64,000 bases of DNA from an uncultured Eubacteriales bacterium (GTDB taxonomy: Bacteria > Acidobacteriota > Aminicenantia > Aminicenantales > Aminicenantaceae). Below, piece after piece: positions 16,831 to 50,088 of this stretch. Position numbers and translations under genes: made by a program. The DNA lies in NCBI GenBank assembly GCA_964440805.1, contig CAYTTR010000005.1:19847-83846 (forward strand). The letters are read 5' to 3'. Below the pieces are notes generated by a model. The model searched no databases. It saw only the letters and a list, made by a program, of their open reading frames with translations, and was not told where the DNA came from. Every line of letters begins with the position of its first letter. Within the stretch, counting starts at the first letter, position 1.

Positions 16831-18201
16831 ATGGAACTTAAAAACAAAAAAGTTCTCGTTGTCGGGCTGGAAAAAACCGGAAAAGCAGCCTGCGACTTTC
16901 TTCTTCGCCGGGGTGCCAAAGTCACTATTTCTGAAAAAAAACGCCCCGAAGAAATCAAAAATTATCTTGAAGAATTAGCCGCCAAAGGAGCAATCATCGA
17001 AGCTGGAGGCCACCAGCAGGATACTTTTCTCCAGGCAGATCTTATCATTCCCAGCCCGGGTGTTCCTCTCCTTAAGGAAATAAGGGAAGCAGAAGCCAGA
17101 GACATCCCGGTATTCTCGGAGGTGGAACTGGCCTTCAGATTTCTTCAAGGAAAAATTGTAGGGATTACTGGATCCAATGGAAAATCAACTACTGCCACTT
17201 TAATTCATAAAATTTTAAAAGAAGCTGGAAGGCCTTCTTTTCTTGCCGGAAACATCGGCACTCCCTTGATAAGCTTCATCGAAGGAAGCCGACCAGACCA
17301 TATATATGTAACCGAGCTTTCCAGTTTCCAGTTGACTCACACCCAGTCTTTCAAAGCCCATGTGGGCGTTTTGCTCAATATCACCCCAGACCATCTAGAT
17401 TGGCATCCTTCCTTCATCCATTACTCTGCAGCCAAAAAAAAGCTTATTCTTTCCCTTGAAGAAAAAGATGTAGCTGTCCTCAATAGAGATGATTCCGAAG
17501 TCTGGTCACTACATAGCCAGACCAGGGCTGATGTTTTCGGTTTCAGCCGGCAGCACCAGGTGGATAAAGGAATGTTTATTAGAGAAGGCTGGATTTATTC
17601 TGTCTTCAAAAAACAAAATAAATTCCTGAAAACATCGGACATCCAGCTTTTCGGCCTTCATAATCAGGAAAACGTGATGGCTTCTGCTCTGGCAGCCTGG
17701 TCTCTGGGAGTTAAGGTGCCTAGAATCCGGGATTCCATCCAGACCTTTAAGGGTCTGGAACATAGGCTGGAAAAAGTGTCCACAATCGAGGGGGTGACCT
17801 TTTACAACGATTCCAAAGCCACTAATGTGGATGCCGCTCTGAAGTCAATTCAGAGCTTTCAGCAAAAAATCATTCCTATTCTGGGAGGCAAGGATAAAGG
17901 AGGCGATTTTTCGGCTCTCAGGCCGTTTCTCAAGCAAAAAGCTAAAGCGGTAATTCTTATTGGTGAGGCAGCCGAAAAAATCCTTAAGGAACTACGCAAT
18001 ATTTCTATTCTCCACCAGGCTCATTCCATGAAAGAAGCAGTAGAGAAAGGATTTTCCCTGGCAGATCAGGGAGATATTGTTCTTCTGGCTCCCGCCTGCA
18101 CAAGTTTCGACATGTTTGCCAATTTCGAAGAGAGGGGTCAATGCTTTAAAAAAGAAGTTCGCTCTTTAGAGGAAAAAATCCTTCAGGGAAATAAGAAATA
18201 A
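16831..18201 (+). CDS. murD: UDP-MurNAc-L-Ala--D-Glu ligase
   Basis: SPGVP, GITGSNGKSTT, ELSSFQL, NITPDHLDWH, NDSKATN, PACTSFDMF. Confidence 0.96.
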   Translation: MELKNKKVLVVGLEKTGKAACDFLLRRGAKVTISEKKRPEEIKNYLEELAAKGAIIEAGGHQQDTFLQADLIIPSPGVPLLKEIREAEARDIPVFSEVELAFRFLQGKIVGITGSNGKSTTATLIHKILKEAGRPSFLAGNIGTPLISFIEGSRPDHIYVTELSSFQLTHTQSFKAHVGVLLNITPDHLDWHPSFIHYSAAKKKLILSLEEKDVAVLNRDDSEVWSLHSQTRADVFGFSRQHQVDKGMFIREGWIYSVFKKQNKFLKTSDIQLFGLHNQENVMASALAAWSLGVKVPRIRDSIQTFKGLEHRLEKVSTIEGVTFYNDSKATNVDAALKSIQSFQQKIIPILGGKDKGGDFSALRPFLKQKAKAVILIGEAAEKILKELRNISILHQAHSMKEAVEKGFSLADQGDIVLLAPACTSFDMFANFEERGQCFKKEVRSLEEKILQGNKK

Positions 18202-19313: not shown

Positions 19314-20401
19314 GAAAGCAGGCAGTAATTTTTACCGGAGGAGGCACAGGAGGACATCTCTATCCTGCCATTGCGGTCAGTAATAAACTCCGGGAAAAAG
19401 CCCCTGAACTTCGCCTTGTCTTCGTGGGAAGTAAAAGGAAAATTGAGGAAACTCTTATGAAAAAGGAAGGCATAGAATTTTTCAAGCTTCCCATCAAAGG
19501 CTTGAAAGGAAGAGGATTACGGGCTCTGGACACGCTCATGCTTCTTCCTTTCGCTTTCCTGAAATCGCTGATTATTTTCCTTAAGGTCAGGCCTTGCCTT
19601 GTTGTTGGAGCTGGAAGTTATAGCGCAGGCCCATTGGTTCTCCTGGCATCGATGATGAAAACCCCCGCCCTTATCCTCGAACAGAATCTTTTTCCAGGAT
19701 ACACTAATCGCCTTCTTCTCCCCAAAGTTGATAAGGCAGTAGTTGCCTTCGAGGAGTCTCTTCCTTACTTCAAGGGAAAAGGAGTCTTTCTGGGAAACCC
19801 GGTAAGAGAAGATTTCTATTCCATTCCCCCCAAGGAAAGAACAGGACCTCTAACCCTATTGATTTTCGGTGGAAGTCAGGGCTCTCACTTTCTTAACTTA
19901 GCTGTTTTGACCACCCTCCCTTTCCTTCAGAGAGAAAAAAATTCTCTGCTGATATTTCATCAGACCGGACCAAAGGATCTTGAGCTGGTAAAAACCGGCT
20001 ACCAAAAACACAGCTTTCGCTTAGTTAAGGTAGCTGCTTATTTTCATAACATGGCCGAATTCTTCAGTAAATCTGACCTAATCATCTGCCGGGCAGGAGC
20101 AACCACCATCGCTGAAATTATAGCCGCAAAAAAAGCTGCTCTCCTTATTCCTTTTTCCCGGGCCACTGAAGACCATCAACTTCAGAACGCTCGCTTATTA
20201 GCAGAGAAGAAAGCAGCGGAATTAATGACTGAAGAAAATTTTAGCCCAGAAAACTTAGCTGCTAAAATCTTGGGTTTTCTGGAAAACAGGGAGAGTCTTG
20301 ACCAGTTTGAAAGGAATCTGGATTCGTTCCGTTCAGAAGATACGGCCGGAAAGATTGCAGGGCTTTGTTTCCAAATGATGAAGAACAGGAAAAAGGAGTG
20401 A
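19310..20401 (+). CDS. murG: Lipid I N-acetylglucosamine transferase MurG
   Basis: GGGTGGH, EQN, GNPVR, GGSQG, RAGATT, HQLQNA; start ATG 19310 (ATGA overlap with ftsW), not 18971. Confidence 0.96.
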   Translation: MRKQAVIFTGGGTGGHLYPAIAVSNKLREKAPELRLVFVGSKRKIEETLMKKEGIEFFKLPIKGLKGRGLRALDTLMLLPFAFLKSLIIFLKVRPCLVVGAGSYSAGPLVLLASMMKTPALILEQNLFPGYTNRLLLPKVDKAVVAFEESLPYFKGKGVFLGNPVREDFYSIPPKERTGPLTLLIFGGSQGSHFLNLAVLTTLPFLQREKNSLLIFHQTGPKDLELVKTGYQKHSFRLVKVAAYFHNMAEFFSKSDLIICRAGATTIAEIIAAKKAALLIPFSRATEDHQLQNARLLAEKKAAELMTEENFSPENLAAKILGFLENRESLDQFERNLDSFRSEDTAGKIAGLCFQMMKNRKKE

Positions 20402-40518: not shown

Positions 40519-43416
40519 TTAATGACAAATGCAGGCTGCTACTAGGACAAGAGGGTGAACCACCGGAATTTCCCCTGGCAGCTCTAAATACCTGGTACTA
40601 AAATACTTTGTCAGAGCCTTGTCCTCCGGTTCAAAATTCTTTATTCCCAGCATTTTTCTAATTTGCAGCCGGCAGGTCACACAGGGAGAAACCACAATTT
40701 CCGGATTAACGGAACGAATTTCTTGAATCAATTCTTCTCCTATCTTCTCTGCATGGGAAGCCCATCGCTTCTCGAATCCCCGGCTCCCGCCAAAGCCGCA
40801 GCAATTGGTTTTCAATTCAATAACCTCGGTTCCTGGGAGAGGCCTTAGAAAATCGAGCAATGATTTCTCTTTTCCCAGCACTTTAAGGTGACAGGGAACC
40901 TGCACCGCCACTTTCAGCCGGGAAAAACCGGCTAAGGCTCCAGTCTCCTTATTAAAGAGAGTTGACTTTAATATAACCTCGTCATTACTTTTATATTCTA
41001 CTTTTTTCTGAAGAAAAAGATTGTTGATAAAATCAACAGCTTCATGAAACAATCTTTTTCCATTTTCCTCTATTAAGAACCCGGAGAAAGAAACAGCGTG
41101 ATCACGAAAGGGAATCATACAGGAAGGCGAGGTAAAGAGAACCGGAATTCTCTCATCAAGGTATGGTTTTAATTTTTTCAACGATTCTTCTAATTGAAAC
41201 GAAGCTTTTTTTGTCAAACCGCGGACAAAGGCAGGCTCACCGCAGCAGAGACCGCTGATCATTTCCACTTTATAGTTGAATTTTTCCAAAAGCTTAAAAG
41301 CCGCCTTGACTTCTGAAGAATTAAAGAAATCTCCTGAACAGCCTGAAAACAAGACCGCTTTTTCTTTTTCTTGATTTATTTCATCTTCACCCTCTTCCCT
41401 TTTAAGAAAATCAAATTTCAGGGAATCCAGATTGGCCATTCCTGAAACAGCAGCAAGCTTTTTAGTAAGCCTGAAATTAAGTGCTTTCCCGGATAAGGGC
41501 CACAAGCTGCGGACAAACTTACCCATTCGTCTCGATCGGGATAAAAGTCTATCAGAAAGAGGAGCCGGCTTGTGTTTATATTTTTCCTCAAAATAGGTTT
41601 CAATCAAGCTGGCTACATCCACTTTAGTCCCGCACTCCCTCTGACATGTTTTACAGTGAAGACAGAGGTTGAAAAATTCATTTAAATCTTCACGTTCAAA
41701 AGGCTTTTTCAGGTGGCCGGCAATGATTTCTCTTAATAAATTAATCCTGGCTCTGGAAAGTGCTCTCTCCCCCCGTTCGCTCCGGATTACCGGGCAAAAA
41801 CTCACACACTTCCCGCAGCCATGACAATCTTCAATTTCAACCGTTAATCGATTTAAAGCCCCGGAGCCTTTATGTCTATAACCTTCGTAGTATTTCAAGA
41901 AATCCTTTACCCCGTAATTCCGGACAGGGACAATGGATAAAGGATTTAACCTGAAATCAGGGTCGAATATTTTCTTGAGCCTTTGAAAATAGGGATAAAC
42001 ATTGCCCCAGATTTCTTTTAAATAGGGAGTGCGGAGAAGGCCATCCCCATGCTCGCCCGAAGGAACTCCTTTGAGACTGCGGGAAAAAAGAGCATGCTCC
42101 CGGCCCAATTGTTCAATTAAATCCGGAAATCCAGGGGACATTCTGTTTAAGCGGGGCGAAAAATGGAGAAGCCCCTGACCGGCATGACCGAAAAGAGCGG
42201 CCGAGGTGTTGTATTTTTGGAGAAGTTTCTCCAGTCCCATAACAAAATCAAGCAACCTCTCAGCCGGCACAGCAGCATCTTCTATCCAGCGGACCGGTTT
42301 TTTCCCGGGAAGACGGGAAAGATAAGCGGCAGCGGAGCGCCGGATAGCCCAGACCCAGGCCATCTCAGCCGGCTCTTCAGCTAAGCGGGATGAAAAAGCA
42401 GAAGAACGTCTGATAAGTTCTCTGGCCCGCCTCTCAAGATCCTGAGGGTTGCTTCCATCAAATTCAGCCAGGATAAAAAACTCAGTGCCTTTGGGAAGCC
42501 GGTTATAATTCTCCGGTTCTTCAGAAGCAATAATCCTTAAAAACTCCTGAGCCAGAACTTGAATAGTGGAAGGTTTTAAATCCAGAAAATCCTTAACTTC
42601 TGAAAAGGCCTGAAGATGGTCTTTATAGGAAAGGAGTACTGAATATCTAAGAGGAGGAATTGGGGCAAGAGTTAGGGTTATTTCAGAAAAAATTCCCAGG
42701 GTACCCTCAGAACCGCAAAAAATTCTGGTTAAATCCACACCTTCCTGTGATAAAGCCTCAAATAAATTATAACCACATGAGTTCCTGAAACTTTGCGGCT
42801 TATTCTTAGCGAGAACAGGCCGGGCTTCTCTCAGCAGCTCTTCGACCTGATTTTTATATTTTACCGGAGCGGAACCGGAATTGGTGACCATAATCTCTTC
42901 TGCTTCCGGGGTAATAACTTTCAGGCTTTTTATGTAATTTTTGGTGGTCCCGTAGAGCAAAGAATGAGCTCCCCCTGAATTATTGGCCGTCATGCCGCCC
43001 AGAGAGGCATAATCCGAGGAAGACGGATCAGGAGGAAAAAACAATCCCTGAAGTCTGATTGCTTTGAGTAAGTCCGACCGGATAAGACCGGGCTGAACAG
43101 TTACAGAAGGCTCAGCTCGATTTAAATGAATAAGCTTATTCATATGGACTGAAAAATCAAGGATAATCCCTTCTCCCAGATTTTGGCCGGCTACACCAGA
43201 GCCGCAACCTCTGGCTGTTAGAGGGATGTCTTCCTCTGCCGCAATTCGTACTGCTTGAAGGACATCCTCCTTATCAAGAGGATAAATTACACCGGCCGGG
43301 ATTAAATAACAGATAGAAGCTGAGTAAGCATAAAGTCTCCTGGTCAGCTCGTCAAAAAAAACTTCTCCTTTTATTTTTTGAGCGAATTGCTTTTTAACAG
43401 ATGATGATATTTCCAT
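40519..43416 (-). CDS. FAD-linked oxidase/Fe-S/CCG-domain oxidoreductase (YdiJ/GlcDF-like 2-hydroxy-acid dehydrogenase family)
   Basis: RGCGSGVAGQ, FPPDPSS, GSEGTLG, GHAG.G.LH, SGEHGDG, CHGCGKCVSFCP, CLHCKTCQREC, two CCG motifs. Confidence 0.9.
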   Translation of the reverse strand: MEISSSVKKQFAQKIKGEVFFDELTRRLYAYSASICYLIPAGVIYPLDKEDVLQAVRIAAEEDIPLTARGCGSGVAGQNLGEGIILDFSVHMNKLIHLNRAEPSVTVQPGLIRSDLLKAIRLQGLFFPPDPSSSDYASLGGMTANNSGGAHSLLYGTTKNYIKSLKVITPEAEEIMVTNSGSAPVKYKNQVEELLREARPVLAKNKPQSFRNSCGYNLFEALSQEGVDLTRIFCGSEGTLGIFSEITLTLAPIPPLRYSVLLSYKDHLQAFSEVKDFLDLKPSTIQVLAQEFLRIIASEEPENYNRLPKGTEFFILAEFDGSNPQDLERRARELIRRSSAFSSRLAEEPAEMAWVWAIRRSAAAYLSRLPGKKPVRWIEDAAVPAERLLDFVMGLEKLLQKYNTSAALFGHAGQGLLHFSPRLNRMSPGFPDLIEQLGREHALFSRSLKGVPSGEHGDGLLRTPYLKEIWGNVYPYFQRLKKIFDPDFRLNPLSIVPVRNYGVKDFLKYYEGYRHKGSGALNRLTVEIEDCHGCGKCVSFCPVIRSERGERALSRARINLLREIIAGHLKKPFEREDLNEFFNLCLHCKTCQRECGTKVDVASLIETYFEEKYKHKPAPLSDRLLSRSRRMGKFVRSLWPLSGKALNFRLTKKLAAVSGMANLDSLKFDFLKREEGEDEINQEKEKAVLFSGCSGDFFNSSEVKAAFKLLEKFNYKVEMISGLCCGEPAFVRGLTKKASFQLEESLKKLKPYLDERIPVLFTSPSCMIPFRDHAVSFSGFLIEENGKRLFHEAVDFINNLFLQKKVEYKSNDEVILKSTLFNKETGALAGFSRLKVAVQVPCHLKVLGKEKSLLDFLRPLPGTEVIELKTNCCGFGGSRGFEKRWASHAEKIGEELIQEIRSVNPEIVVSPCVTCRLQIRKMLGIKNFEPEDKALTKYFSTRYLELPGEIPVVHPLVLVAACICH

Positions 43417-43550: not shown

Positions 43551-44156
43551 TTATTTGACAAGATTCCGGACGGTTAAATTGAAGACATCCTTTGCCCTGC
43601 ACTCTTTGGTTACAGGATAAGCATCAATAAGATTCCGCAGGGACTCTTGATTTAATTCATCGAATTGAAAATCAAGGAAAATGAGATTTTTCTTTCCCTC
43701 AACAAGATAGACATATCTTGTTTCCTGGTAATAATCCCAGCAAATACCGACTTTATCGAGATCCAAAAGGTAGTTAAATTCATCTTGTTGGATAATTTGA
43801 GGCGTTAACTTTCCCGGCTGAACTTTCATGATGACTTTTTGAACCGGGCTCCATGAAAGAGTATCTTTATCGAACCTGCTAAAGTCAGAAAAATAATAAA
43901 TTGGGCCCAATTCTTCATCATCATGAATACCCATAAATACGCCGATAATTATTTCATCCGCATTATAATATGATTTATGCATTTCTTGACCCATAGAACG
44001 CTGGAATGGCTTCAGTACAAAACCGCGCGGCACAGGAGGTGGAGCGGGTTCAGCCTTAGCTGGTTCTGGCTCGACTTTGGGAGCTCTGGCACAGCTTGTA
44101 ACCAGTGCAGCCGCTAAAATAATATAAGTTTCATACCTAATGAACTTTTTAAACAT
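43551..44156 (-). CDS. Hypothetical lipoprotein
   Basis: Lipobox LVTS-C, Pro-rich linker, GGAG RBS. Confidence 0.75.
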   Translation of the reverse strand: MFKKFIRYETYIILAAALVTSCARAPKVEPEPAKAEPAPPPVPRGFVLKPFQRSMGQEMHKSYYNADEIIIGVFMGIHDDEELGPIYYFSDFSRFDKDTLSWSPVQKVIMKVQPGKLTPQIIQQDEFNYLLDLDKVGICWDYYQETRYVYLVEGKKNLIFLDFQFDELNQESLRNLIDAYPVTKECRAKDVFNLTVRNLVK

Positions 44157-44328
44157 TTTATCCGACTCTCCGTTTTCAGATAAATTGAAATCAATTTTCT
44201 TAAGAAGCCCCAGTTTAGTTAAATTCCAGAATAAAGTCCACTTTGATTAAGTTTCTCTCTTTTCCCCAGGATAATTGACCGCCGGGAAAGTCTGTGCTAT
44301 AGAAAAAGAAAAAATAAAAGAAAACAAT

Positions 44329-45549
44329 ATGAACAAAAAACCAAAAGATTCCAACCATTCTTCAGAAAAATTCTCTGCCTCTTTAACAGAGAATGAACCT
44401 CCTCCGCCTGAAATAAACTCAAAAAATTCCCCAAACGCTATAAACGCAACAAACGCTATTAACTCCCATGATACAGGGGGCAATTTTTTTCCTCTTGATG
44501 AAGCCTCTTCCCACATTCTTGAATTGACCGCTGAGCTGGAGGCTCAACGAAAAGTGGCCATGAACAGCTCCCTTCCTCTTGAAAAGCGCTTGGAGGCCTT
44601 CGAAGACATTATGGAGTCGGAAATAGGCGATACCGCGCTTCATCGTGCCCGGAACATTGAACGAGAAGTCGGACTGCGCCAGATATATTTAAAATTTGAA
44701 GGAGGGAACCCCACCGGTACCCAAAAAGACAGGATAGCTTTTTCCCAGGCAATGGATGCTCTTCGGGCCGGTTACCAAAGCATAACCACAGCAACTTGCG
44801 GAAATTACGGAGTAGCTGTAGCCCTGGCAGCTTCTCTGGCCGGATTAAAGTGCATTATTTTTATTCCTGAAAACTATCATACCAAAAGGGCTCAGGAAAT
44901 GATTTCTTTCGGGGCTGAACTCCGCCGAGTTCCCGGTGATTATGAAAGAACGGTCATTATCTCCCGCGAATTTGCCGAATCGGAAGAAGAAGTTTACGAT
45001 GCCAACCCGGGAGGAGCCAATACCATTTTGCAGCTCAAAGCTTACGGTGAAATCGCTTATGAAATATATGACGAACTGCGTGACGCCCCATCAGCCTTGG
45101 CTGTTCCGGTTTCCAACGGAACCACTCTGGCTGGAATCCACCGGGGGTTTCTTAGTCTTTACCGGCGGGGAAAAACCTCCAAGGTTCCCCAGATGATAGG
45201 CGGTTCATCTTACCGGAAAAATCCCATAATCCATGCTTTCATAAAAAATATCTCTACATGCCAGGATTTAAAGCCTGAACAAATTAAAGAAACCGCCATA
45301 AACGAGCCCCTGATAAACTGGCAATCAATTGACGGAGATCAGACCTTGGCTGCCATCCGATTATCCCAAGGCTGGGCCGCTTATGCCAGCGACAAAAGCA
45401 TGCTTTACTTCTCACGTCTTATCCGGGAGCAAGAAGGTCTCAACATATTACCTGCCGCCACTGCCGGACTAATTGCTCTTTTAGAAAAGCATAAAAGAGA
45501 GACCCTTCCAAATGATCGTTATGTAGTTATTTTAACAGGGAGAAAATAA
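44329..45549 (+). CDS. PLP-dependent fold-type II enzyme, threonine synthase-like with divergent motifs
   Basis: GDT.L.RARN, LKFEGGNPTGTQKDR (PLP Lys), ATCGNYG, VPVSNGTTLAG, VVILTG. Start placed at ATG 44329; the TTGACC at 44275 may be a -35 element rather than a start. Confidence 0.88.
   Translation: MNKKPKDSNHSSEKFSASLTENEPPPPEINSKNSPNAINATNAINSHDTGGNFFPLDEASSHILELTAELEAQRKVAMNSSLPLEKRLEAFEDIMESEIGDTALHRARNIEREVGLRQIYLKFEGGNPTGTQKDRIAFSQAMDALRAGYQSITTATCGNYGVAVALAASLAGLKCIIFIPENYHTKRAQEMISFGAELRRVPGDYERTVIISREFAESEEEVYDANPGGANTILQLKAYGEIAYEIYDELRDAPSALAVPVSNGTTLAGIHRGFLSLYRRGKTSKVPQMIGGSSYRKNPIIHAFIKNISTCQDLKPEQIKETAINEPLINWQSIDGDQTLAAIRLSQGWAAYASDKSMLYFSRLIREQEGLNILPAATAGLIALLEKHKRETLPNDRYVVILTGRK
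44413..44466 (+). repeat. Six degenerate 9 bp units in the disordered N-terminus (INS KNS PNA INA TNA INS)
   Basis: ataaactca aaaaattcc ccaaacgct ataaacgca acaaacgct attaactcc. Confidence 0.65.
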
Positions 45550-46634
45550 TGACATCTTCCCTCCCTGAAGGAAATGCGATTGTCTATTGTGAAGGAGCCT
45601 TCGAGACTCCCAACGGCAAAACAGCTCATGGCCTTGTCCGTTTTTCTAAAAGATACAAGGTCCTTTCAGTTATTGATTCCCGTTTAGCTGGAAATGATGC
45701 CGGTGGAGTCTTAAACGGGCGGCCCAAAGGAATTCCTATTGTAAAAAATCTAAAGGCTGCTCTTGATTCAGCCCGCCGGCAAAACCTTAAGGCTACTCAT
45801 TTTGTTTTTGGAGTCGCCCCTGATGGAGGAAGATTTACTGCCTCTGACCGGGAAGCCATCCGCGAAGCCATTCTCATGGGGCTTAATGTAGATTCCGGCC
45901 TCCATGATTTCATGACGGATGACCCGGAACTAAGCGCCTTGGCCCGGGATGCCGGCGTCAAGCTTCGTGATGTAAGAAAACCTCCTCCTCCCTCCTCTCT
46001 CCACTTTTTTAACGGCAAAATCGAAGAAGTAACCTCTTTGAAAGTGGCTATGCTGGGAACAGATTCAGCGGTGGGAAAAAGAACCACGGCTTGGGTTCTG
46101 GTAAAGGTTCTTAATTCAAGCGGCCACAGGGCTGAACTTATCGGGACCGGCCAGACCGCCTGGCTGCAAGGTGTCCGCTACGGAATAATCATGGATTCCC
46201 TGATAAATGATTTTGTTTCCGGCGAAATTGAGCATGCCGTCTGGACTGCCTGGAAAGAAGCCTGTCCTGAGGTGCTGGTTATTGAAGGACAAGGAAGCTT
46301 AATGAATCCAGCCTACCCCGGCGGCTTCGAAATTCTGGCTGCCGGCCGCCCCGATGCAATTTACCTCCAGCATGCTCCGGCCCGCAAAGAATATGACGGC
46401 TTTCCCGGTTATCCTATCCAGCCTATTGAAACGCAGATCCAAGCTATAGAGCTTCTTTCCGGAAAACCGGTTATTGCCATCACCATCAATCACGAAAAAC
46501 TCAATGAAGACCAGATTGCCCGGGAAATCGTTTCTCTTAACCGGCGAACAGGCCTCCCCGTTATTGATCCTCTCCATTGTCAACCCTCGGAAATCATTGC
46601 TCCTCTTTTTCCCTATTTGAAAAAAAGACAATAA
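45549..46634 (+). CDS. DUF1611 protein, DgcN-like D-glutamate N-acetyltransferase family
   Basis: GKTAHGL.R, SGLH, GTDSAVGKRTT, TGQT, DFVSG..E, EGQGSL. Confidence 0.9.
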   Translation: MTSSLPEGNAIVYCEGAFETPNGKTAHGLVRFSKRYKVLSVIDSRLAGNDAGGVLNGRPKGIPIVKNLKAALDSARRQNLKATHFVFGVAPDGGRFTASDREAIREAILMGLNVDSGLHDFMTDDPELSALARDAGVKLRDVRKPPPPSSLHFFNGKIEEVTSLKVAMLGTDSAVGKRTTAWVLVKVLNSSGHRAELIGTGQTAWLQGVRYGIIMDSLINDFVSGEIEHAVWTAWKEACPEVLVIEGQGSLMNPAYPGGFEILAAGRPDAIYLQHAPARKEYDGFPGYPIQPIETQIQAIELLSGKPVIAITINHEKLNEDQIAREIVSLNRRTGLPVIDPLHCQPSEIIAPLFPYLKKRQ

Positions 46635-46662
46635 AAGAGATAATATTGCTCCTGAGGTGCAA

Positions 46663-49020
46663 ATGACTTCCAAGAAAAGCAGTTCGGCCGGAGCTTCACT
46701 CGACCCGCTCAAAGTTATTTCATCGCTTGAAATCGGACCGGTCAAGATAGAACCACGTAAGCTAATTGCTCCCTATGAAGTTAAAAAAGACAACTTATCC
46801 TCGACCACAGAATTTATATGCAGTTATGATGAAGACGTTTTTGATCCCGGCAATCCGGTCTCCATAAATCTGGCTCAGGTGATGGCTGCTCAGGTTGCCT
46901 TGAACTACGGATTATTCGCCCATGAAATTATATTTCGCGGCCCCTATGATGCCATTGACAAACGTTTCATCACGGACATGATGGAAAACACTTCCCGGGA
47001 GATTTATGTAAAAAAATTTCTGGAACCGAATCCTTTTCTCAAAGGCCAGGCTTCACAACTTACTCCTGTCCGCCAGCCTCGTTACACTCAGGCTGTACTC
47101 AAATTCCCGGATTCCCCGCTTAAGGGGAAAAACACTGCTCCTTATAAAACATTTCTTCATTTGGATCAAAACCGCCACCTTGTTCTCTCCAGCGGAGGAA
47201 AAGACAGCCTTCTGAGCTTTGGTCTTCTCAAAGAGCTGAACCGGGAAACTCACCCTGTATTTATTAATGAATCAGGGCGCCACTGGTTTACTGCTCTTAA
47301 TGCTTTCCGGAATTTTTCCAAAAATTATGCTGGGACAGCCCGGGTCTGGACAAATTCGGACCGCCTTTTCAGCTGGATGCTCCGTCTTTTTCCTTTCATA
47401 AGAGAAGATTTTCCCTCAGTACGTTCGGATGAGTATCCCATAAGACTCTGGACTGTTGCTGTTTTCCTATTCGGCGCTTTACCTATAATGTTTAAGCGAA
47501 AAATAGGCCGTTTGGTTATCGGAGATGAATTCGACACCACTACCAGAATGAGTTTTAAGGGCATAACTCATTATAACGGTCTTTACGATCAAAGCCGCTA
47601 TTTCGATAATGTCTTAACCCGTTATTATCAAAAAAAGGGCTGGAACATCCATCAGTTTTCTCTTCTTAGGCCTTTGTCCGAGCTGCTGATTGAAAAAACC
47701 TTGTATGAACGCTACCCCCACCTGCAAACCCAACAAATGTCCTGTCACGCAGCCCATATAGAAGGAGATCGTGTCCGTCCTTGTGGAAAATGCGAAAAGT
47801 GCCGCCGTATAGTCGGCATGCTGCTGGCTTTTGACGGGAACCCGGAAAACTGCGGCTATACCCGGGGGCAGGTCCAACAATGCTTAAAGGCAATCTCTGA
47901 AAAAGGGGTTCACCAGGAACCTGCAGGGGCAAAGCACTTAGCCTATCTTCTAAAAAAGAAGGGAATAGTTTCCACCTCCTCGGCCGCCTTCAAAGCGAAA
48001 GAGCATCCTGAAATAATGAAAGTGCGGATTGATCCGGAAAAATCACCCTTTGATACCGTTCCTCTTGATCTGCGCCGGCCCCTTTTTAAAATATTTTTAA
48101 CCCATGCCTCAGGAGTGGTCAAGCGAGTCGGCCGGCAATGGGTTGAATTCGATCCTTTTAATGATCCCTCTTTCAGCCGGCCTCTCGATTTTAAAAAAGC
48201 CGGCAAGAACAATCGGGACAAAAAAAATCCGGCCGCCCTGCCTTCCTATCTTCTGGGTGAGCTCAGCTGGCCGGAAGCTAAAGCTTATCTGCAGAAAGTT
48301 GATATTGCTCTTCTTCCGGTTGGGGCAACCGAACAGCACGGCCCACATCTCCCTCTGGACACCGATGCCTTTGATGCTGATCTTCTGGCAAGAAAGGTGG
48401 CTGAAGCCTGCAGTGATCCCAAACCTTTGGTCCTTCCTCTTATTTCTTACGGGGTTTCATATCATCATGAGGATTTCAGCGGAACAATAAGCATCAGTCC
48501 TGACTCTCTATCCCAGCTTGTCTATGAAGTGGGCATGTGTGTAGCCAGGCAAGGTATAACCAAACTGGTCATTATCAACGGCCATGGAGGAAATATTCCT
48601 GCCCTCCATTTCGCAGCTCAGAAAATAAACCGCGACTCTCATATTTTCACCTGTGTGGAAACAGGAGAAACCAGCGAGAAAGATATGTCTTCAATTATAG
48701 AAACTCCTAATGATGTTCATTCCGGAGAAACGGAAACCAGTACTGCCCTGGCTGCCAGGCCTCACTTGGTTAGGATGGACAAGGCCAGGCGATTCGTCCC
48801 CAAATTTTCCATTAAATATCTTAATTTCAGCTCCAAGAGAAGAGTAGACTGGTACGCCCGGGTTTCCAAAATTTCCTCAACCGGAGTTCTGGGCGATCCC
48901 ACCAAGGCAACCCGTCAAAAAGGTGAACAAATCTGGGAAGTCATGGTTAAACATTTAGTTGAATTTGTGGAAGAGTTAAAAAGCCTTACTCTCGAAGAAA
49001 TCTATCAGAAAAAGTATTAA
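46663..49020 (+). CDS. Fusion of a PP-loop/Cys4 (MurL/QueC-like) ATP-dependent domain and a C-terminal creatininase-family amidohydrolase
   Basis: N-domain: LSSGGKDS, GDEFD, FSLLRPLSELL, SCH..PCGKCEKC. From about 48247: LGELSWPE, PVGATEQHGPHLPLDTD, NGHGGN, DVHSGETETS, GVLGDP. Confidence 0.88.
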   Translation: MTSKKSSSAGASLDPLKVISSLEIGPVKIEPRKLIAPYEVKKDNLSSTTEFICSYDEDVFDPGNPVSINLAQVMAAQVALNYGLFAHEIIFRGPYDAIDKRFITDMMENTSREIYVKKFLEPNPFLKGQASQLTPVRQPRYTQAVLKFPDSPLKGKNTAPYKTFLHLDQNRHLVLSSGGKDSLLSFGLLKELNRETHPVFINESGRHWFTALNAFRNFSKNYAGTARVWTNSDRLFSWMLRLFPFIREDFPSVRSDEYPIRLWTVAVFLFGALPIMFKRKIGRLVIGDEFDTTTRMSFKGITHYNGLYDQSRYFDNVLTRYYQKKGWNIHQFSLLRPLSELLIEKTLYERYPHLQTQQMSCHAAHIEGDRVRPCGKCEKCRRIVGMLLAFDGNPENCGYTRGQVQQCLKAISEKGVHQEPAGAKHLAYLLKKKGIVSTSSAAFKAKEHPEIMKVRIDPEKSPFDTVPLDLRRPLFKIFLTHASGVVKRVGRQWVEFDPFNDPSFSRPLDFKKAGKNNRDKKNPAALPSYLLGELSWPEAKAYLQKVDIALLPVGATEQHGPHLPLDTDAFDADLLARKVAEACSDPKPLVLPLISYGVSYHHEDFSGTISISPDSLSQLVYEVGMCVARQGITKLVIINGHGGNIPALHFAAQKINRDSHIFTCVETGETSEKDMSSIIETPNDVHSGETETSTALAARPHLVRMDKARRFVPKFSIKYLNFSSKRRVDWYARVSKISSTGVLGDPTKATRQKGEQIWEVMVKHLVEFVEELKSLTLEEIYQKKY

Positions 49021-49023
49021 AAA

Positions 49024-50088
49024 ATGCGGATAACAGGTATTGAAGTTTATTCTGTCTCCATGCCTCTGGCCGATCCTTACACCATTGCCTACCAGACTGT
49101 AGAAAAAGCAACCAATGTCTTTCTTCATTTAAAAACAACCGGCAGAGAAGTCGGGTTCGGCTGCGCTGCACCCGACATTTATATCACTAAAGAAACGCCG
49201 GAAGGAGTAGAAAAGGCTCTCCGGGAAACAGCCTTTCCGGAGATAAAAGGCTCTGACCCCCTCAGAGTTGCCTTAGTCCTGGAAAAAGTGAGACGCAGCC
49301 TGGACAAGCAACCTTCAGCCCTGGCTGCCCTGGATATGGCCCTCCATGACCTCCTGGGAAAGGTAAGCAACCTCCCTCTCTGGAAGCTTTTAGGAGGCTT
49401 CAGGGACCGCATCAAAACCAGCATCACTATTGGTATTTTATCTGAGGAAGAAACAATCAGACGGGCCAGGGATTTTGTAGTCAGAGGCTTTAAATCAATA
49501 AAAATAAAAGGCGGTAAAGACGTTGAGGATGATATCCTTAGGGTGCTTCGGGTAAGAGAAGAAGTCGGACCCAGAGTAGAGCTTCGTTTTGATGCCAATC
49601 AAGGCTATACCGAAGAACAAGCATTGAAATTTGTTGAAAAAACCCGCAGCGCTAAGCTGGAGCTTCTCGAACAACCAACTCCCAAAGGTCATCCAGATCT
49701 TCTCGGCCGGGTAACCTCAGCGGTTCATATACCGGTGATGGCTGATGAAAGCCTTCTCACCCTCCGCGATTCTTTCAGGTTAGCCCGGAGGGATCTGGTG
49801 GATATGGTCAATGTAAAGCTTATGAAGGTAGGGGGGATATTTACGGCTTTGGAGATAAATGCGGTGGCCAAGTCTGCCGGCCTTGAAGTAATGGTAGGCT
49901 GCATGGATGAATCTGCCCTGGGAATTGCAGCCGGTCTTCATTTTGCCCTGGCCAGGCCAAACGTTATTTATGCCGACCTGGACGGCCATCTTGATCTACA
50001 AGGAGATCCGGCTGAAGGAGCGGTCATTTTAAAAGAAGGGATTCTCTATCCATCAAACAAGCCCGGTCTGGGATTTAACCTCGAGTAA
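49024..50088 (+). CDS. Enolase-superfamily dipeptide epimerase, DgcA-like N-acetyl-D/L-Glu racemase
   Basis: KIK, DANQGY, EQP, ADES, NVKLMKVGG, MVGCM.E, DLDG (DxD of Ala-Glu epimerases). Confidence 0.92.
   Translation: MRITGIEVYSVSMPLADPYTIAYQTVEKATNVFLHLKTTGREVGFGCAAPDIYITKETPEGVEKALRETAFPEIKGSDPLRVALVLEKVRRSLDKQPSALAALDMALHDLLGKVSNLPLWKLLGGFRDRIKTSITIGILSEEETIRRARDFVVRGFKSIKIKGGKDVEDDILRVLRVREEVGPRVELRFDANQGYTEEQALKFVEKTRSAKLELLEQPTPKGHPDLLGRVTSAVHIPVMADESLLTLRDSFRLARRDLVDMVNVKLMKVGGIFTALEINAVAKSAGLEVMVGCMDESALGIAAGLHFALARPNVIYADLDGHLDLQGDPAEGAVILKEGILYPSNKPGLGFNLE

Follow-up and report, generated by a model that had tools for sequence, protein, structure and literature searches.

Four adjacent genes on the forward strand of a 64,000-nucleotide stretch of DNA (referred to here as the window; positions 19,847 to 83,846 of contig CAYTTR010000005.1, assembly GCA_964440805.1), derived from an uncultured Eubacteriales bacterium that is placed by GTDB among the Aminicenantaceae of the Acidobacteriota, very probably constitute one conserved functional module. 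The four genes encode, in this order, a pyridoxal 5'-phosphate (PLP)-dependent enzyme resembling threonine synthase (ThrC), a DUF1611 protein, a fusion of a PP-loop ATPase domain with a creatininase-family domain, and an epimerase of the enolase superfamily.

The PLP gene (44329..45549, +; ThrC-like, fold-type II) encodes 406 residues when translated from the ATG at 44329, its longest open reading frame (ORF) being 44275..45549 from a TTG, and it overlaps by 1 base pair (bp) with the DUF1611 gene (45549..46634, +; 361 residues, identified from the ORF list and Pfam), as base 45549 is common to the stop of the former and the start of the latter. The fusion gene (46657..49020, +) encodes 787 residues from a GTG at 46657 or 785 residues from an ATG at 46663, leaving 22 or 28 bp, respectively, behind the DUF1611 gene; the 785-residue form is the one represented in the protein database by an entry of 100% identity (P0005). 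The epimerase gene (49024..50088, +; 354 residues, with MR_MLE_N and MR_MLE_C domains) follows after 3 bp. This layout was described in an earlier prediction made for this DNA (here termed the original prediction) as four co-oriented genes with a 1 bp overlap and gaps of 28 and 3 bp, with which the ORF list agrees. Because the genes flanking the cluster on both sides are located on the opposite strand, the four genes stand as a unit.

Conservation and distribution of the four genes

The genomic neighbourhood of the fusion gene was surveyed by means of a genome scan with one genome per species, in which 80 loci were identified. Fifty-two of these matched only the creatininase domain (30–40% identity) and were set aside, and the remaining 28 loci (L008 to L035) were examined by tblastn. 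The order PLP–DUF1611–fusion–epimerase on one strand was observed at 18 of the 28 loci; six further loci are cut by contig ends and are consistent with the full order, and four deviate from it. All four genes in order were found in metagenome-assembled genomes (MAGs) labelled Aminicenantes, Acidobacteriota, Desulfobacteraceae/Deltaproteobacteria, Gemmatimonadota, Bacteroidota and Krumholzibacteriales, as well as in the cultured Desulfosarcina widdelii PP31 (L020), while the taxon labels of the examined loci also include Calditrichota. The expectation that the four families would co-occur across phyla was thereby borne out.

Departures from the full arrangement were of several kinds. Of the four deviating loci, L024 lacks the DUF1611 and epimerase genes, and L025 and L027 encode nothing of the module beyond the PLP enzyme, the DUF1611 protein and the N-terminal domain of the fusion. 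At L032 (L032:8001-10273), which derives from a complete-chromosome MAG, matches were confined to the epimerase and to the final ~395 residues of the fusion, with no PLP or DUF1611 gene within 8 kilobases (kb) upstream, and this locus may represent a decayed copy of the module. The fusion is split into two genes at L028, L029 and L030 (Bacteroidota) and at L033 (Desulfobacterales). In a Gemmatimonadota MAG (L035:8001-10356), the fusion gene was matched in three pieces, with 33–35% identity for the N-terminal part and 63% identity for the C-terminus; this gene may be frameshifted or hybrid.

The four proteins were shown to be 48–73% identical across phyla. Their identities to the window's proteins co-vary over 16 loci (rho 0.66–0.95), a figure to which kinship among the loci contributes, and this co-variation fits inheritance or transfer of the genes as a block. 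Presence and absence were furthermore profiled in 151 genomes of the window's phylum, a sample whose tallies include the unpublished, non-carrier genome G049. The fusion profile was matched in 68 of these genomes, its N-terminal domain in only nine, i.e. G000 (the window's genome), G005, G011, G026, G042, G065, G119, G124 and G129. NF004996, the NCBIfam model to which the PLP enzyme conforms, was matched above its cut-off in all nine carriers of the N-terminal domain and in none of the 142 others, and the corresponding gene adjoins the fusion gene in eight of the nine, the two genes being located on separate contigs in G026. No match to NF004996 above its cut-off was found in any of 14 well-known control genomes. 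Within the window's own class, 11 genomes were sampled, and the N-terminal domain was not found in any of them. The resulting patchy distribution (9/151) looks horizontally transferred. Chance adjacency of the four genes is ruled out by the 18 of 28 loci with the same order, together with the identical presence of the PLP and fusion genes across the 151 genomes.

No conserved fifth gene family, be it a transporter, a regulator or a tailoring gene, was identified across the 28 loci, and genes encoding GGDEF proteins, transporters of the major facilitator superfamily (MFS) and permeases occur sporadically near the module and look unrelated to it. A gene encoding a sigma-54-dependent response regulator (receiver, AAA and Fis-type helix-turn-helix domains) was observed upstream of the cluster at 5 of the 28 loci (L017, L019, L020, L022 and L027), at a distance of ~1 kb in L027 and 3.2 kb in L020, and could control the operon in those lineages.

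Across more distant relatives, the constant core consists of the DUF1611 gene and the gene encoding the PP-loop domain (termed MurL-like here because of a resemblance to the epimerase MurL that is detailed below), usually accompanied by the PLP gene; the creatininase and the epimerase come in addition in a single subfamily, the one represented by the window. The metagenome query comprised 18 standalone relatives with 28–46% identity to the window's PP-loop domain, and all 80 metagenome loci, a non-random sample chosen by sequence pattern and likeness to one query, were examined. Where a contig leaves room for the gene concerned, DUF1611 is located directly upstream of the MurL-like gene at 60 of 63 loci and the PLP gene upstream at 47 of 53. 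Downstream, among 66 loci with room, a creatininase gene was found at 15, a gene encoding a small GNAT acetyltransferase at 39 and neither at 12; identity to the window amounts to 48–61% for the creatininase loci and 30–44% for the others. The GNATs form two families (38 and 12 loci overall) and are closest to RimI (32–77 bits, cut-off 86.4), with additional resemblance to streptothricin and arsinothricin resistance acetyltransferases. The epimerase gene is present at 21 of 50 loci with room, accompanying the creatininase gene at 11 of 11 loci with room and occurring without it at 10 loci, where an M14 carboxypeptidase-like gene is often its direct neighbour. A gene encoding an M14 carboxypeptidase-like protein (~452 residues; zinc-carboxypeptidase match weak, 24–26 bits) was found at eight GNAT-type loci (L145, L149, L161, L163, L164, L165, L169 and L120), seven of which also contain the epimerase gene, and a radical SAM/SPASM family was found at 8 of the 80 loci.

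Natural fusions were also encountered among the database representatives of the MurL-like family, P0127 (855 residues) joining a DUF1611 part (residues 73–352) to a MurL-like part (residues 371–851), and P0156 (781 residues) representing a MurL-like and creatininase fusion with 31% identity to that of the window. An apparent PLP–DUF1611 fusion ORF in L097 was dismissed, as its coordinates point to an open-frame read-through.

Component proteins and their characterised relatives

The product of the first gene (PALP, 185.9 bits) exceeds the cut-off of NF004996 (PRK06381, named 'threonine synthase' by NCBI, a name not known to be based on any test) with 416 bits against 266, and fails that of the thrC model TIGR00260 with 95.1 bits (96.5 in the genome search) against 167.1. 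Fold and PLP lysine are common to this protein and ThrC (PDB 2zsj and 1uim): Lys133, the predicted PLP lysine, aligns with K61 of Thermus thermophilus ThrC (1uim), a correspondence that validates the alignment numbering. The differences concern residues R160 and T88 of T. thermophilus ThrC, which we take to surround the substrate phosphate. The Arg and Thr are kept in all four aligned ThrC structures and are replaced in the module enzyme by Gln and Tyr, respectively, the STGNT loop of ThrC being represented by TCGNYG; 22 orthologues share the Gln as well as the altered loop. At the N-terminus, a stretch of ~50 residues is of low complexity and not conserved, with alignments of orthologues starting at residues 34–69 (mostly 50–57). 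The enzyme probably does not use O-phosphohomoserine.

A canonical ThrC above the TIGR00260 cut-off is encoded at a separate locus in five of five other carrier genomes, in which the module copies of the PLP enzyme score ~94–101 bits on this model. In the window's own genome (94% complete), no canonical ThrC above the same cut-off was found, the next best match being a threonine/serine dehydratase. A plain housekeeping ThrC is ruled out as the identity of the first gene by the TIGR00260 score, the residue replacements and the separate ThrC of the five carriers. The original prediction had described this protein as an atypical threonine-synthase-like enzyme, and the low thrC score, the Gln in place of R160 and the TCGNYG loop corroborate that description. 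Genome annotations that make use of NF004996 probably mislabel the enzyme as threonine synthase, and an ESM Atlas search with its sequence returned only clusters bearing that name. Two matches to NF004996 below the cut-off were observed in the phylum sample, at G065:C92:23714-24598 (195 bits) and G047:C34:5713-6609 (175 bits), and may correspond to PLP enzymes of distant GNAT-type clusters.

The second gene encodes a protein with a two-domain DUF1611_N and DUF1611_C architecture (PF17396, 87.8 bits; PF07755, 204 bits), comprising a Rossmann-like N domain and a P-loop-like C domain with the motif GTDSAVGKRTT. Its relatives of known structure are 2g0t, 2obn and 7xrj (E 1e-37 to 3e-30; 7xrj, 2.9e-30), and by its sequence it is recognisable as a relative of the D-glutamate N-acetyltransferase DgcN, falling below the equivalog cut-off of the DgcN model NF041892 (148.8 bits, cut-off 480). 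Relatives within DUF1611 comprise the D-glutamate acetyltransferase and a predicted N-succinyl-L-glutamate synthase, according to the available part of PMC13759103 and to the NCBIfam name. A single DUF1611 gene was found in the window's genome.

A DgcN–DgcA pathway of D-glutamate catabolism was reportedly described by Yu et al. in 2023 (ISME J 17:537). The pairing of a DUF1611 protein with an enolase-type racemase corresponds to the DgcN–DgcA logic as set out in the accessible portion of PMC10845958. The module resembles that system in combining a DUF1611 protein of acyltransferase type with an enolase-superfamily racemase in one operon, in its presumed closing deacylation step and in the underlying logic, by which the amine is acylated so that C-alpha can be inverted. 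It differs in that the constant partner of DUF1611 is the PP-loop ATPase rather than the racemase, in that it additionally comprises a PLP enzyme of its own and an amidohydrolase in fused form, and in that its proteins score far below the respective equivalog cut-offs (148.8 versus 480 for DgcN and 158.5 versus 400 for DgcA, the latter with model NF042940).

The epimerase encoded by the fourth gene remains below every curated cut-off, including those of the L-Ala-D/L-Glu epimerase models NF041118 (214 bits, cut-off 500) and NF011708 (84 bits, cut-off 343). Its best relatives in the PDB are the dipeptide epimerases 3rit (Methylococcus), 1jpm (YkfB) and 3jva (Enterococcus), with E-values of 1e-72 to 1e-67, with which it has in common both catalytic lysines, three metal ligands and an aligned DLD motif, and from which it differs in its scores, in the lack of Arg24 and in its genomic partners. 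The position of Arg24 of YkfB, presumably the residue that binds the glutamate side chain, is occupied by Gln in the window's epimerase and by Glu in most orthologues; if this role of Arg24 is right, glutamate would be an unlikely substrate and a neutral or basic side chain would be likelier, which is offered as a lead.

The KxK, D, E, D and K positions align with those of YkfB, whose catalytic lysines are given as K162 and K268 in the consulted part of PMC5808125, and with those of eight DgcA sequences. The DgcA references were true sequences from Alphaproteobacteria (50 of 151 genomes from that class exceed the cut-off, with scores of 416–516). All eight also carry DLDG, and the motif therefore does not separate dipeptide from N-acetyl substrates; the DxD motif was accordingly discarded as proof of a dipeptide substrate. 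The 20s loop does set the two groups apart, as it reads AYQT in the window and AY[EQ]T (mostly AYET) or ANET in orthologues, versus ISRG[SA][RK]T in each of the eight DgcA sequences. Given this difference in the loop, a specific link to D-glutamate, the substrate of the Dgc route cited in the original prediction, is not supported. As for the family labels of that prediction, the domain anatomy was confirmed by Pfam and NCBIfam, whereas 'DgcN-like', 'DgcA-like' and 'MurL-like' denote resemblance rather than membership, as all three scores are well below the curated cut-offs.

Full-length relatives of the fusion protein number in the thousands at 61–66% identity and are named at most 'creatininase family protein'. 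Its residues 1–520 gave no match in Pfam, with only 12-bit matches appearing at E-values up to 10. In an alignment of 19 homologues (71% mean column identity), the PP-loop motif SSGGKDS (residues 178–184; 47188..47208, +) was (nearly) invariant, as were, without exception, the four cysteines C363, C376, C379 and C382 of the stretch SCH...PCGKCEKC (47743..47802, +), which represent a predicted zinc site of the QueC type. The PP-loop motif aligns with GGGKDS of a true MurL and the cysteine stretch with its CGLCPKC, and weak matches to QueC and DUF6395 were also obtained (Pfam QueC, 11.6 bits, cut-off 22). The family of this domain is small: at E ≤ 0.001, it numbers 436 representatives out of 1.84 billion, and many of these are fragmentary.

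Two references served for the comparison with MurL, one being a true MurL that scores 821 bits on the MurL model NF041275 and the other a MurL-like protein that scores 351 bits. The fusion itself scores 33 bits on this model, over residues 311–389 only and with a cut-off of 700. The fusion alignment was related to the true MurL by hhalign (E 6.7e-5, probability 64%, residues 171–385) and the fusion to the MurL-like protein by BLASTP (E 1e-8, 26% identity over 226 residues), the motifs GGKDS, SLLRPLSEL and CGxCxKC being common to both families. An AlphaFold model of the fusion (mean predicted local distance difference test score 72; N-terminal region mostly 80–94) was used in a Foldseek search, which related the PP-loop core to QatC, QueC and Cap9 (E 1e-3 to 0.08). 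With residues 1–520, the nearest ESM Atlas clusters were unnamed ones of 503 residues (Bacteroidota) and 474 residues (67% Archaea, most commonly Thermoplasmatota, the phylum being known for 15 members), MurL clusters coming next; MurL families were indicated on 27 of 30 matches. As judged from these alignments and the structural model, the domain is a remote homologue of MurL with a QueC-like fold, outside the MurL equivalog.

MurL requires ATP and Mg, releases AMP, acts in one direction and has been suggested to work by adenylation of its substrate's alpha-carboxylate, the substrate being a C-terminal glutamate that bears an N-acyl (peptide) group, according to the available parts of PMC5808125 and PMC8788868. 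By homology, the PP-loop domain of the module, which possesses the PP-loop core with SGGKDS, SLLRPLSEL and CGxCxKC, probably releases AMP in adenylating a carboxylate that adjoins an amide. It differs from MurL in that only residues ~171–391 of the fusion align, in that no MurD2-type ligase gene is located alongside, in that the domain is fused to or precedes a creatininase-family hydrolase, or precedes a GNAT, and in that a DUF1611 gene lies upstream. With QueC, QatC and Cap9 (PDB 3bl5, 2pg3, 9y01 and 9nto), it has in common the ATP-binding core fold and the Cys-rich zinc motif; unlike these, it comprises an extra N-terminal domain of ~170 residues and a C-terminal extension of ~130 residues, and no queuosine or defence genes are located near the module.

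The creatininase-family domain (residues 535–771; 48259..48969, +) scores 240.1 bits on PF02633 (gathering threshold 31.3), falls just short of the MftE model TIGR03964 (163.7 bits, cut-off 172) and lies below the creatininase equivalog (105.9 bits, cut-off 235). The C-terminal part of the AlphaFold model matches creatininases at E ~1e-8. The predicted metal ligands E559, H561, D570, H643 and E693, as well as H688, are invariant in the 19 homologues and align with E34, H36, D45, H120, E183 and H178 of Pseudomonas creatininase, respectively, the first five of which we take to be the binuclear metal ligands of that enzyme. Since all six aligned residues are kept, the hydrolase site looks intact; the domain is not a creatininase proper. 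Compared with creatininase and MftE (PF02633; PDB 3no4 and 1j2t), the Pfam score, the metal ligands and the histidine matching H178 are retained, while the domain is distinguished by its scores on both models, by its fusion to a PP-loop enzyme and by a Gly at the position of Glu122 of Pseudomonas creatininase. Members of this family open a five-membered cyclic amide (creatinine) or cleave peptide bonds (MftE). No mycofactocin genes were found among the conserved neighbours of the module at the 28 loci.

A candidate pathway and its alternatives

The component superfamilies of the module are known, and its logic resembles those of both Dgc and MurL. As its joint function, a mechanism of protection, activation, inversion and deprotection is proposed tentatively, as a possibility somewhat short of probable. 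The sequence data show the identities of the domains, the intactness of the catalytic motifs, the conservation of gene order, the strict co-occurrence and the natural fusions; the chemistry of the mechanism, its substrate and the direction in which it runs, be it L to D or D to L, are inferred. The DUF1611 enzyme would use an acyl-coenzyme A (acyl-CoA) to N-acylate a free amino acid at its alpha-amino group, and the MurL/QueC-like domain would adenylate the alpha-carboxylate of the resulting N-acyl amino acid, converting ATP to AMP and pyrophosphate. The N-acyl amino-acid adenylate could then close to an oxazolone-type ring with a labile alpha-proton, allowing C-alpha to be inverted, after which the fused creatininase/MftE-like amidohydrolase would open or deacylate the product and release the inverted amino acid. 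The ThrC-like PLP enzyme may make the entering amino acid or consume the leaving one, and the enolase-superfamily epimerase may equilibrate a related compound, either a dipeptide or an N-acyl amino acid, whose side chain is possibly non-acidic. Since a free amino acid would need N-acylation before MurL-like chemistry could act on it, this scheme would explain why the DUF1611 and MurL-like genes are inseparable and why they can be fused. The acylation, ATP-dependent activation, racemisation and amide hydrolysis anticipated in the original prediction fit the families and intact motifs found. Its suggestion of a possibly undescribed pathway also stands, in that no description of the four-gene module was found in the literature searched.

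A broader claim, which appears rather doubtful at present, is that the module represents a free-amino-acid counterpart of MurL that makes or consumes D-amino acids irreversibly and acts on a non-proteinogenic substrate supplied by a new ThrC-derived enzyme. The constant triad would then define a new pathway, distributed over six or more phyla of bacteria and probably reaching into archaea. Amino-acid stereochemistry is otherwise handled by PLP-dependent or cofactor-free racemases or by the Dgc route, and if the claim is true, a third enzymatic logic would exist, in which energy is spent to invert a free amino acid in one direction; to our knowledge, the only example of such inversion to date is MurL, whose substrate is a cell-wall precursor. 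The claim would likewise provide a function for four poorly annotated families, namely for DUF1611 proteins outside DgcN, for the MurL-like PP-loop family, for a creatininase subfamily and for NF004996, and would correct the systematic mis-annotation of NF004996 proteins as threonine synthase. D-amino acids constitute a large pool of refractory organic nitrogen in sediment and soil, and the carriers are mostly uncultured bacteria from these environments, on whose activity a catabolic or biosynthetic reading would bear. With Desulfosarcina widdelii PP31, a carrier exists in culture in which the question can be tested directly.

Several points weigh against the proposed inversion pathway. The homology to MurL is remote (33 versus 700 bits; hhalign probability 64%) and confined to the PP-loop core, and other enzymes of the PP-loop (QueC-like) fold form amides and do not epimerise. 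The presence within one operon of both an ATP-driven inverter and an epimerase of the enolase type looks redundant. Every chemical step is inferred, and the PLP enzyme has no assigned role in the scheme. With regard to gene content, L024 lacks DUF1611 and the epimerase, the PLP gene is absent from L108 to L112, and distant subfamilies possess a RimI-like GNAT in the place of the creatininase, leaving a second acetyltransferase unaccounted for.

The amide-forming chemistry of QueC, QatC and Cap9, the nearest folds, would be at home in a pathway producing a small metabolite of the N-acyl amino acid or dipeptide type (for example, an antimetabolite, an osmolyte or a signal), a function that we regard as fairly unlikely. 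The PLP enzyme would in that case make a non-proteinogenic amino acid, DUF1611 would protect its amine, the PP-loop domain would act as an amide ligase that, like QueC-type enzymes, couples an adenylated carboxylate with an amine, the creatininase would deprotect the product, the epimerase would set the C-terminal residue to D, and, at the loci with a GNAT, this acetyltransferase would tailor the product or protect the producer. Such a function would suit a dedicated, strictly co-occurring and atypical PLP enzyme, the use of each enzyme once, the patchy distribution (9/151) with its look of horizontal transfer, and the RimI-type GNATs of 39 of 66 loci, which resemble resistance acetyltransferases. 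The closest characterised sequence relative of the PP-loop domain is, however, an epimerase, MurL; the conservation of the four proteins across phyla is in each case unusually high (48–73% identity), and no conserved transporter, regulator or extra tailoring gene accompanies them at the 28 loci. The DLD motif of dipeptide epimerases, which the module epimerase retains, also points in the direction of this function, but its occurrence in the N-acetyl-D-Glu racemase DgcA means that it is no proof of a dipeptide substrate. An extended catabolism of the Dgc type, directed at D-amino acids or at peptides containing D-residues, is judged unlikely. In such a route, DUF1611 would acylate, the enolase-type enzyme racemise and the creatininase deacylate, with the PP-loop and PLP enzymes as accessories that may, for example, feed the L-product to central metabolism. 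An amino-acid permease gene follows the cluster in L027 and an MFS transporter gene in L020. The epimerase and M14-like pairing of GNAT-type loci recalls the pair formed in Escherichia coli by the murein-peptide amidase and YcjG (context of ycjG in PMC5808125), the amidase, MpaA, being presumably an M14 enzyme. The DUF1611 and enolase racemase pair follows the DgcN–DgcA logic (PMC10845958). Weighing on the other side are the constant partnership of DUF1611 with the MurL-like gene, the epimerase being present at only 21 of 50 loci; the low DgcN and DgcA scores (148.8 versus 480; 158.5 versus 400); the 20s loop, which is unlike that of the eight true DgcA sequences; and the expenditure of ATP to AMP plus acyl-CoA, which would be costly for catabolism. 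Two of the best conserved proteins would, moreover, be left without a role.

A peptidoglycan-linked function, on which the original prediction touched in naming peptidoglycan-derived peptides, draws on the homology of the PP-loop domain to MurL and on the gene content of the window's genome, which lacks a MurI above cut-off and a D-amino-acid transaminase yet encodes a canonical MurD (16831-18201, 449 bits on the canonical murD model, 28 kb from the cluster). A MurI match is missing in five of the nine carriers of the phylum sample, but it is missing in 54 non-carriers as well; with MurI in 4 of 9 carriers versus 88 of 142 non-carriers, a tally of related and thus not independent genomes, the two are not clearly complementary, and replacement of glutamate racemase by the module is not supported. 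The MurL model score (33 versus 700 bits), the absence of the module from the 11 sampled genomes of the window's class and the lack of a conserved Mur ligase neighbour at the 28 loci argue in the same direction, as does the 67% share of Archaea, organisms without murein, in one of the feature clusters nearest to the domain. The MurL homology thus speaks for a link to peptidoglycan, and the MurI tally and gene neighbours against it, leaving the link weak and the function very improbable. Least probable of all is considered a modification of peptide or protein C-termini, similar to the maturation of ribosomally synthesised and post-translationally modified peptides (RiPPs), in which MftE-like, MurL-like, M14-like and RimI-like enzymes would act on peptide ends. 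The creatininase domain is indeed just under the MftE cut-off (163.7 versus 172 bits), QatC and Cap9, going by the titles of their PDB entries, belong to defence systems that modify proteins, and the GNATs are closest to RimI. Nevertheless, DUF1611 relatives act on free amino acids, no conserved radical SAM or other RiPP maturase was found at the 28 loci, and no conserved small ORF was detected within 2.5 kb of the clusters at 109 loci, the recurring small ORFs being shadow frames of the GNAT gene. A conserved precursor peptide, searched for within 2.5 kb of the clusters at these 109 loci, was consequently dropped as a candidate.

Neighbouring genes and further observations

On the 5' side of the operon, an ORF of the opposite strand (window positions 40519-43416, –) encodes a 965-residue fusion of a flavin adenine dinucleotide (FAD)-dependent oxidase and an Fe-S protein of the glycolate or D-lactate dehydrogenase type, in which FAD_binding_4 and FAD-oxidase_C domains are joined to 4Fe-4S and CCG domains; this gene is not kept beside the module at other loci. 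An ORF of 201 residues, without a Pfam or NCBIfam match, is located between the oxidase gene and the operon (window positions 43551-44156, –). The 3' neighbour of the operon, likewise on the opposite strand, is a gene encoding a class I Trp/Tyr transfer RNA ligase.

The amino-acid racemases and transaminases of the window's genome (85 contigs) were also catalogued. No glutamate racemase above the TIGR00067 cut-off was found in this assembly, and members of the Asp/Glu-racemase family are represented by a YgeA-like protein (305 bits, cut-off 417) and a CuyB-like protein (216 bits, cut-off 190). Two class IV aminotransferases are encoded, both of which score as IlvE.

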